30,818 nt of DNA from IMG/VR virus record IMGVR_UViG_2565956711_000013, positions 1-30,818 of that record; one strand, given 5' to 3'. Below, piece by piece: positions 30,025-30,818 of the stretch; the stretch's first letter is position 1, and each line of letters opens with the position of its first letter. The notes beneath the pieces are model-generated. The model was not told the DNA's origin, searched no databases, and saw nothing but the letters and a program-made list of their open reading frames with translations. The stretch comes from a virus. Its lineage: Duplodnaviria > Heunggongvirae > Uroviricota > Caudoviricetes. Position numbers and translations under genes: made by a program.

Positions 30025-30818
30025 CCCCTGAATCCTGCCGGGATCTGGCTGTAGTCCACGTTGTCGTAACTGGATTTGAAGTACGGATCTTCACGTTTTT
30101 CTGTGTATGTGCTGACGGACGGCGATAAGCGCAGGGAAAGCTCATCCCATTTTTCCCGCAGCTTCGACGGGCTGAGCACGTTACGGCACCAGAACGGATC
30201 GCGGCTGACGCGGCTGTACATCTCGCAGATTTGTTTGTGAGTACGACCATCCTGCACACACATCAGGCGAATTTCGTTTGCCCAGGCTGTCCAGTTCGGT
30301 TCTTTGGGACGAACCACCTCGCCGTCACATTCGGCAGCCTGCTCGTACAGGGCGATGATTTTTTTCCAGAGCCACTGTGCGCAGGTCAAATCATCCTGCG
30401 TCCCCCACTGGCGTTTTTTAGGGCTGAATACAACCGCATCAGGATGGCGAGTTAAAAAATCCTGTTCAGCCGTCTGCGTGTCCGGTTGCGAAGCGTCCGG
30501 ACGAGAAGGTTTTTTATCTGACGGATCATGTTTTGATTTTACTGACGGATCCCCGCCAGATTCTGACGGGTGAAAACCCGCTTTTTTGCCAGATTTCGAC
30601 GCATCAAATTTTGACGGGTCAGATTTTGATGCGTCAGATTTTGACGGGTCAGAATCTGACAGTTGAGAAAATGCCGCTGCCTGAAGCTTCGCAACGTTAA
30701 GCTGATAAACATTCGACGCATTGCGGTTACCCTGGCGACGCGCCTTACGCGTTAACCAGCCTTCTGCTTCCAGCCGTGCGATAGCCGTTCTGACGGTACT
30801 CATCCCCGCGCCAATCTG
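30021..30818 (-). CDS. Replication initiator-like protein (5'-truncated by the window) with internal iteron-encoded linker
   Basis: The frame stays open to the window edge upstream of the track's Met at 30803; an HTH-like N-terminal segment, a low-complexity repeat linker (SDSDPSKSDASKSDPSKFDASKS) encoded by tandem DNA repeats, and a C-terminal domain; architecture parallels lambda O. Confidence 0.45.
   Translation of the reverse strand, partial: QIGAGMSTVRTAIARLEAEGWLTRKARRQGNRNASNVYQLNVAKLQAAAFSQLSDSDPSKSDASKSDPSKFDASKSGKKAGFHPSESGGDPSVKSKHDPSDKKPSRPDASQPDTQTAEQDFLTRHPDAVVFSPKKRQWGTQDDLTCAQWLWKKIIALYEQAAECDGEVVRPKEPNWTAWANEIRLMCVQDGRTHKQICEMYSRVSRDPFWCRNVLSPSKLREKWDELSLRLSPSVSTYTEKREDPYFKSSYDNVDYSQIPAGFRG
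30516..30662. repeat. Iteron-like tandem repeats (putative origin of replication) inside the initiator gene
   Basis: About 8 copies of (T)TGACGG / TGATGCG cores, including three near-perfect 15-bp units gtcagattttgaYgSg at 30616-30660; cores form short dyads (TGACGGGTCA). Confidence 0.5.

Follow-up and report, generated by a model that had tools for sequence, protein, structure and literature searches.

The window analysed here comprises 30,818 nucleotides of a tailed virus (Caudoviricetes; IMG/VR record IMGVR_UViG_2565956711_000013, positions 1 to 30,818) and ends within a replication initiator gene that holds an array of 15-bp iteron-like repeats in its own coding sequence. We propose that this array is quite likely the replication origin of the phage, laid out on the plan of bacteriophage lambda with a different DNA-binding domain. 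The best explanation of the whole, which we regard as likely, is a repeat-bound initiator with an in-gene origin, in which a DnaT-like C-terminal tail would replace a phage helicase loader. Positions 29500-30818 match Escherichia phage vB_EcoM-720R4 (ON470603) at 100% identity and Shigella phages SfII and SfIV at about 98%, and the window end cuts the replication module of a temperate phage of the SfII/SfIV type. An original prediction, made from the letters of the window alone, had taken the repeats as the mark of a likely origin; their position, the constraint on their DNA and their covariation with the initiator support it, and the origin activity that we infer rests on these sequence comparisons.

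Eight copies of a 15-bp quasi-palindromic unit were read between positions 30512 and 30664, five of them in tandem and three dispersed. The tandem units start in register at 30590, 30605, 30620, 30635 and 30650, with another copy found by repeat search within 30542-30571 and two GATC-containing variants at 30536-30550 and 30512-30526. Tandem Repeats Finder described the array either as a 15-bp unit, CAGATTTTGACGGGT, present 4.3 times over 30590-30653 (score 86) or as a 30-bp unit present 2.1 times (score 100). Every tandem unit holds the dyad GTCA-N5-TGAC, and the unit reads TCTGAC-NNN-TCAAAA on the coding strand. A core derived from the repeats of relatives, TCARAWYCTGAY, gave 14 matches in the window with at most one mismatch, as opposed to 1.68 +/- 1.15 in 100 shuffled sequences, none of which reached 14. 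Eleven of the 14 matches fell within the 136 bp of 30525-30660; the core was essentially missing elsewhere in the window, and no second cluster of the motif was found in the window or in the matching phage record. As single-stranded DNA the repeat segment folds into hairpins well above its shuffled versions (z = -4.6). Repeat finding, repeat search and shuffles thus agree on repeats at 30516-30662, where the original prediction had placed them, and its description of the units can be refined. The three tandem 15-bp units that it counted are in fact five, its "eight or more" copies hold if degenerate copies are counted but not for the exact core (TGACGG occurs five times, at 30519, 30543, 30564, 30612 and 30642, and TGATGCG once), and the conserved core of these real repeats is better given by the coding-strand sequence above than as TGACGG/TGATGCG. 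Candidates rejected in this region were an Rfam match of 30587-30661 to the eukaryotic microRNA family mir-5880, which is sub-threshold (30.7 bits against a gathering score of 97) and arises because the repeats form hairpins, a false positive relevant to automated annotation, and plus-strand antisense open reading frames (ORFs) over the repeats (30533-30700 and 30304-30573), which we treat as spurious because the minus-strand frame has strong homology.

In order to compare the array among relatives, 80 related loci were collected from bacterial genomes and the linker DNA was read in 17 full-length relatives. Homologous initiators from several genera also carry repeats. In class A relatives, which have the N-domain type of this phage (MSxKLxxYVWDGCA...) and come from Shigella, Pantoea, Citrobacter, Providencia and Klebsiella, the DNA pattern TCA-RAA-YCT-GAY-NNN stays constant while the peptide changes (SKSD, SKSV, SKPD, SNFD, SKFE) and the copy number ranges from 2 to 9. 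Of 175 serine codons in the linkers 152 are TCA or TCT, whereas the remainder of these genes uses them for 86 of 272 (chi-square p about 1e-29; the compared sequences share phylogeny and p-values are therefore overstated, though the qualitative pattern is clear). Class B relatives, whose N-terminus reads MSSKLHGLVWEGCA..., have a related but distinct repeat unit. It occurs both as TTGACCCCYCAA and as the reverse complement TTGAGGGGTCAA without a change of the 15-bp register; one orientation is translated as IDPSN and the other as VEGST, and a repeat at the protein level is therefore insufficient as an explanation. Class-A genes contain the class-A motif 3-9 times and class-B genes 0-1 times; for an exact class-B motif the counts are 2-10 in class B and 0-2 in class A. 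In the natural recombinant P0036, a class-B N-domain and class-B repeats sit on the C-domain of this phage, while in a second, mEp460_4F5, an unrelated N-domain, which has 23-bp repeats of its own, is fused to a 97%-identical C-domain, the recombination joint lying directly 3' of the repeat region. The repeat type tracks the class of the N-terminal domain and not that of the C-domain, and three unrelated initiator types that occupy one genomic slot each have their own repeats at the interdomain position. These relatives show selection on the repeats as DNA, and the repeats covary with the DNA-binding domain.

The gene that encloses the array matched PHROG 391, "replication initiation O-like", at 8e-136 and Pfam HTH_36 over residues 23-70 at 4.3e-11, with weak DnaD_N and RP-C matches, which bears out its assignment as a replication initiator. 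The sequence beyond the window was read from the 100%-identical phage ON470603 and completes a protein of 313 amino acids, the first ~48 codons of which lie past the window end. In homology searches the C-terminal domain matched that of lambda O (BLASTP 7e-26, aligned from residue 69 onward only; 39% identity over residues 165-276, tblastn 9e-18) and to phi80 gp15 (BLASTP 4e-25). Neither Phage_rep_O (PF04492) nor Rep_3 was matched in Pfam, NCBIfam gave nothing useful for the initiator, and a PDB sequence search returned MarR-type winged-helix matches only (E about 0.008). An AlphaFold model made for a relative 98% identical to the window initiator (P0005) has a winged helix at residues 1-98, a disordered stretch at 102-164 (predicted local distance difference test, pLDDT, <50), a helical domain at 164-278 (pLDDT mostly 84-94) and a low-confidence tail. 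The repeats encode residues ~100-150 of 313, coinciding with the predicted disordered stretch, and the peptide, which contains SDSDPSKSDASKSDPSKFDASKSGKK, is the Ser/Asp/Lys-rich linker that had been described; the coding strand, which the original prediction had left out, is the minus strand.

Iterons inside initiator genes are textbook knowledge for phages lambda, phi80, P22 and L, and the origin proposed here is ordinary in kind, a further member beside these four. The annotated iterons of lambda lie at residues 116-144 of O and those of phi80 at residues 121-147 of gp15, in keeping with the likeness to gene O that had been noticed. Lambda O with ori-lambda, phi80 gp15 and gene 18 of P22 and L all share with the window a two-domain initiator with origin repeats in its own gene at the interdomain linker, and the same arrangement is reported for lambda, P22 and L in a paper on phage L (PMC8022706). 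Further likenesses to ori-lambda are the quasi-palindromic repeats with their single-stranded hairpins and an AT-rich stretch, modest here in length and composition, that follows the repeats in the same direction, and N-domain and repeats are exchanged as one recombination unit, as in lambdoid hybrids. Unlike lambda O, the window initiator has an HTH_36 N-domain in place of Phage_rep_O; its repeats are 15-bp direct tandem units, in contrast to the four ~19-bp units of lambda with their spacing of 20-24 bp; its AT-rich element is shorter and has two conserved GATC sites; and the phage lacks a P gene, its initiator ending in IPAGFRG where P-associated relatives have W/NTDW-type tails.

The AT-rich element directly follows the array in the direction of transcription, with GATC sites at 30524 and 30548; no other 40-mer of the gene is as rich in AT (70%). 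It was found in 17/17 of the relatives examined, from both N-domain classes, and its two Asp codons are GAT, which creates GATC, in 33 of 34 cases versus 27 of 82 in the array. An AT-rich stretch with two conserved GATC sites after the repeats brings the layout closer to that of lambda than the original prediction had seen, and we read the element as the likely opening region, perhaps controlled by methylation. A gene for a Dam-type N6-adenine methyltransferase lies two genes downstream of the initiator here, one to three genes after it in many relatives, and next to it in Klebsiella phage 1 LV-2017; the phage Dam is a possible modifier of the two origin GATC sites. The coordinates of these features are collected in Table 1.

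Table 1. Features of the initiator gene, its repeats and neighbouring genes in the window
Feature	Position	Strand	Basis or remark
Five 15-bp iteron-like units in tandem	30590..30664	.	Repeat finding and family-derived core
Isolated sixth iteron copy, CAGATTCTGACGGGT	30557..30571	.	18 bp away from the tandem array
Conserved AT-rich element with two GATC-containing iteron variants; coding strand GATCCGTCAGTAAAATCAAAACATGATCCGTCAGATAAAAAA	30510..30552	.	
Replication initiator gene, 3' 266 codons and stop	30021..30818	-	ORF translation; PHROG 391, Pfam HTH_36
N-terminal winged helix (HTH_36), in-window part: recognition helix and wing, residues ~49-98	30669..30818	-	
C-terminal helical domain, residues ~165-279, homologue of the lambda O / phi80 gp15 C-domain	30126..30470	-	
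Initiator C-terminal tail, SSYDNVDYSQIPAGFRG, matching the invariant C-terminus of host DnaT	30024..30074	-	
PerC/YfdN-like gene directly downstream of the initiator, not a helicase loader	29530..30018	-	Pfam PF06069, 7.4e-9
Phage Dam-type N6-adenine methyltransferase	28877..29530	-	Pfam PF05869, 1.2e-45

As had been stated in the original prediction, no helicase-loader gene follows the initiator and the next gene is PerC-like; it also belongs to PHROG 1324, "transcriptional activator". The absence of a loader is conserved in relatives, and no P, DnaC or DnaB gene is annotated across the 35-kb record of the 100%-identical phage. The module had been called non-canonical, for which we prefer the term initiator-only module with a DnaT-like tail; initiator-only modules are reportedly already listed in the review of phage replication modules by Weigel and Seitz from 2006. 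A census of the three ORFs downstream of the initiator at each of the 80 loci established that the type of tail predicts the neighbouring gene among these relatives. Initiators ending in W-N-x-x-E-A-W-E or NTDW are followed by a homologue of lambda P or phi80 gp14. A P homologue was present nearby for 1 of 18 initiators with IP-x-GFR(G) tails (a doubtful P fragment) versus 44 of the 62 others (Fisher p 6e-7), and the gene after two GFRG-tail initiators, among them that of prophage L030, encodes a protein with 51% identity to E. coli DnaC.

Two further tail types were noted among the initiators of this collection. Those that precede a lambda-P homologue (L015-L018, L020, L027, L031, L036, L038 and others) carry a W-N-(S/T)-x-E-A-W-E or D-F-N-N-T-D-W tail, which may be a P-docking element; lambda O itself ends DLTNTDWIYGVDL. 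A third group shares the C-domain and has neither P nor DnaC next to it; its initiators, found in Providencia, Proteus, Morganella and Edwardsiella, bear a C-terminal extension of ~70 residues ending ...RRMxxFxGRxAWxxIWxQAxEQ... (loci L019, L022, L024, L025, L035, L045, L047, L048, L052, L053, L062, L064, L069, L076, L080 and L081).

The window initiator ends VDYSQIPAGFRG (IPAGFRG) and its relatives end SEPDTEIPPGFRG, in agreement with the motif S-x-P-D-x-x-I-P-x-G-F-R-G at the C-terminus of DnaT, the residues of which are invariant in 14 DnaT orthologues of 70-85% identity. Relative P0112 ends QRCVNHISEPDTEIPPGFRG and shares 14 of 20 residues with DnaT (1e-7). Alignment of the initiator with E. 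coli DnaT by hhalign paired only the tails (DnaT residues 146-178); homology of the whole proteins was therefore rejected, and the Pfam DnaT family (PF17948) was not matched in the initiator. Within DnaT the tail segment lies outside the solved domain (PMC4132743). The same tail recurs on other phage proteins. YdaU of the Rac prophage ends RQVNTVSLPDSAIPPGFRG and directly precedes YdaV, which is 50% identical to DnaC, and the initiators of Gifsy-1, POCJ13 and vB_EcoS-666R9 each carry the tail directly before a DnaC homologue, the order in which host dnaT lies directly upstream of dnaC. Loader-less initiators with the tail include those of SPN1S, BUCT711, Tritos and the SfV/mEp460 type. In all, four or more unrelated scaffolds bear the tail, accompanied by a DnaC homologue or by no loader and once by a questionable P fragment. 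All 47 of the 47 phage records that matched the 20-residue DnaT tail did so within genes annotated as replication proteins, and the label "primosomal protein I" on several phage records indicates that annotation pipelines detect the DnaT similarity. No paper was found on the shared tail or the PGFRG motif, nor on an association of the tail with DnaC-type loaders.

DnaT is recruited to abandoned forks by PriA-PriB and not through sequence-specific DNA binding (PMC5778457, PMC12871339), and the route by which DnaT and the primosome recruit DnaB/DnaC is called unknown in reviews and "remains unknown" according to a 2026 cryo-electron microscopy preprint on the primosome. The tail may quite plausibly link the initiator to the host DnaC-dependent loading pathway (DnaB-DnaC). 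More tentatively, we suggest that IPxGFRG could be a portable docking motif for DnaC-type helicase loading, placed by temperate phages on at least four unrelated scaffolds and used by host DnaT for DnaB-DnaC.

Based on these comparisons, we infer repeat binding by the initiator, origin firing, a role for Dam and a partner for the tail, which could act together as follows. The N-terminal winged helix would most likely bind the 15-bp repeats in the middle of its own gene, and several initiators bound among the eight sites, five in tandem and three dispersed, would wrap the DNA or bend it, which would open the adjoining AT-rich element with its two conserved Dam sites. The IPAGFRG tail would couple the origin-bound initiator to host DnaB-DnaC, or to whichever partner the DnaT tail has, and no phage loader would then be needed.

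Several points weigh against the array being an origin. The adjoining element is just 70% AT over 40 bp, with GC of at least 0.43 in 60-bp windows, and a scan for DnaA boxes and the IHF consensus around the array was negative (DnaA-box matches were weak, with one mismatch, and none lay nearby), which leaves no obvious host helper for origin melting. Recent slippage may account for part of the codon skew and of the repeat identity inside a single gene. The literature searched contains no experiment on this initiator family, an origin is not discussed in the genome papers of SfIV and SfI, and our searches on the SfII, SfIV or SfV origin, on yfdO/oweS and on initiator-only modules returned no relevant literature. 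A low-complexity flexible linker that changes by replication slippage and has no cis role, with the origin elsewhere (intergenic or beyond the window), would account for the predicted disorder of the segment, for the want of a strong AT-rich region or DnaA box and for the widely varying copy number among close relatives, in which the initiator measures 274-332 residues and the gaps fall in the repeat block. We nevertheless consider such a linker improbable, as the DNA pattern and the choice of serine codons are conserved where the unit peptide is not, class-B units encode unrelated peptides in their two orientations while keeping the register, the repeat type goes with the N-domain, the interdomain repeats recur in all three unrelated initiator types of the slot, and the core motif is so nearly confined to the array. 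It is less probable again that the repeats are initiator-binding sites for autoregulation or copy control, by way of an operator or of handcuffing, with opening and loading at another site. An array inside a transcribed gene would allow bound initiator to block its own transcription, and in iteron plasmids one set of repeats serves both initiation and control. Against this, the AT-richest stretch with its conserved GATC sites adjoins the array in every relative, as would fit an opening unit, the motif forms a single cluster in the window and the phage record, and the position matches those of ori-lambda and the phi80 origin exactly. We find the array well supported as the origin because of this shared iteron position, the serine codon skew, the constancy of the DNA over a varying peptide and the covariation with the N-domain.

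The part proposed for the tail has its own difficulties. The DnaT similarity is confined to ~17-20 residues and the hhalign probability of the whole comparison is 17.5%; the partner of the tail could equally be PriA or another factor; and in close relatives the block of DNA homology that includes the downstream genes starts inside the tail, so that some of the sharing of the tail reflects recombination and not independent selection. This last observation would also suit an explanation in which another phage protein supplies loading, the PerC/YfdN-like protein being the candidate, and the GFRG tail is irrelevant, a recombination scar or some other tag. In many relatives (L009-L011, L013, L021, L042) the initiator is followed by a YfdN-like gene, and the N-terminal half of its product has no assigned function (PHROG 23071). 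The same gene, however, also occurs after the P homologue in relatives L020 and L031 and is therefore not a substitute for P, and Klebsiella phage 1 LV-2017, L012, L026, SPN1S and Tritos lack a YfdN-like gene after the initiator. The tail, for its part, is conserved as protein in relatives with unrelated neighbourhoods, its motif residues are invariant in host DnaT, and it accompanies unrelated scaffolds with a DnaC homologue or no loader, save for the questionable P fragment. To a loader of this kind we give the least credence of all the explanations considered.

Beyond lambda, the module can be set beside several known systems. E. coli DnaT has the same kind of extreme C-terminus, and the order of tail protein then DnaC recurs in prophages, but the rest of the window initiator is not DnaT. 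Rac YdaU-YdaV, the Gifsy-1 "O" with its DnaC homologue and gp16-gp17 of Stx phage POCJ13 share the ...PD-x-x-IPPGFRG tail; they differ in having other scaffolds (YdaU is a DUF1376 protein) and their own DnaC homologue directly downstream, of which the window phage has none. The replication protein of SfV, mEp460 and Stx2c phages (272 amino acids) occupies the same slot, with YfdN-like, Dam, LexA-like and RusA genes downstream, and likewise combines an HTH_36 N-domain, internal repeats of its own (24 bp x4.6) and the same C-terminal tail with the absence of a loader gene. Its middle and C-terminal regions are unrelated, with no lambda O-like domain, and its different repeats encode a Gly/Ser/Ala linker. 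Iteron plasmids with Rep_3 initiators (pSC101, F, R6K, P1 oriR) resemble the module in their tandem direct repeats, winged-helix initiator and reliance on host DnaB-DnaC, which for the window phage is putative, and P1 oriR depends on clustered GATC sites. They differ in that the window initiator has no Rep_3 match or DnaA boxes, its repeats lie inside the coding sequence and its C-domain is lambda O-like. The Eru replication types of Stx phages were considered and set aside as different modules.

YdaU (L092:1620-2477) and DnaT (L089:2979-3518) of E. coli K-12 are 40% identical over 80 residues (1e-8), and this similarity spans DnaT residues 110-178, reaching beyond the tail. The host dnaT-dnaC operon may, judging by this resemblance, descend from a prophage pair like ydaU-ydaV; a paper on the domestication of dnaC from phages does not mention DnaT.

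Other observations concern the surroundings of the initiator. Between the Dam and RusA genes, positions 28554-28880 of the window (minus strand) encode a 108-residue protein that consists of a LexA DNA-binding domain only (PF01726, 2.9e-19), without the peptidase domain, and SfII, mEp460 and Stx phages conserve the gene. A YmfM-like gene (L001:6473-6811; PHROG 1170) adjoins the initiator on its upstream side, just past the window end; a preprint reports that ymfM of e14 causes SOS-inducible filamentation. Pantoea-type relatives (L012:3958-5295, L013:4459-5775, L042:3970-5292) have a protein of ~440 amino acids just after the initiator or YfdN, in which a ParB-nuclease-like DGHHR motif was seen by eye. 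Window positions 23375 and 30525 correspond to 19793 and 27716 of ON470603, offsets that differ by ~770 bp, and the window is therefore not collinear with that genome throughout. A sigma-70 promoter scan of 29900-30818 found none, and three weak terminator-like hairpins on the plus strand of the same interval, antisense to the gene, were dismissed as by-products of A/T runs.

Although no origin for SfII/SfIV-type phages was described in the literature searched, the array offers a testable one for a common group of temperate phages of E. coli, Shigella and Salmonella, namely SfII, SfIV, relatives of CPS-53 and e14, and many prophages. According to a recent preprint, quasi-palindromic origin repeats are linked to the sensing of lambda by Lamassu. 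Of greater value is the question of the loader, as the module shows how a lambda-O-type initiator can function without P. If IPxGFRG is indeed a docking motif, an origin-bound initiator would recruit phage DnaC or, in initiator-only phages, host DnaC without a lambda-P-type loader. DnaT and the initiator have a peptide of 7-13 residues in common, and the phage comparison nominates DnaT residues ~167-179, an invariant segment with no function assigned so far, for the recruitment of DnaB/DnaC.

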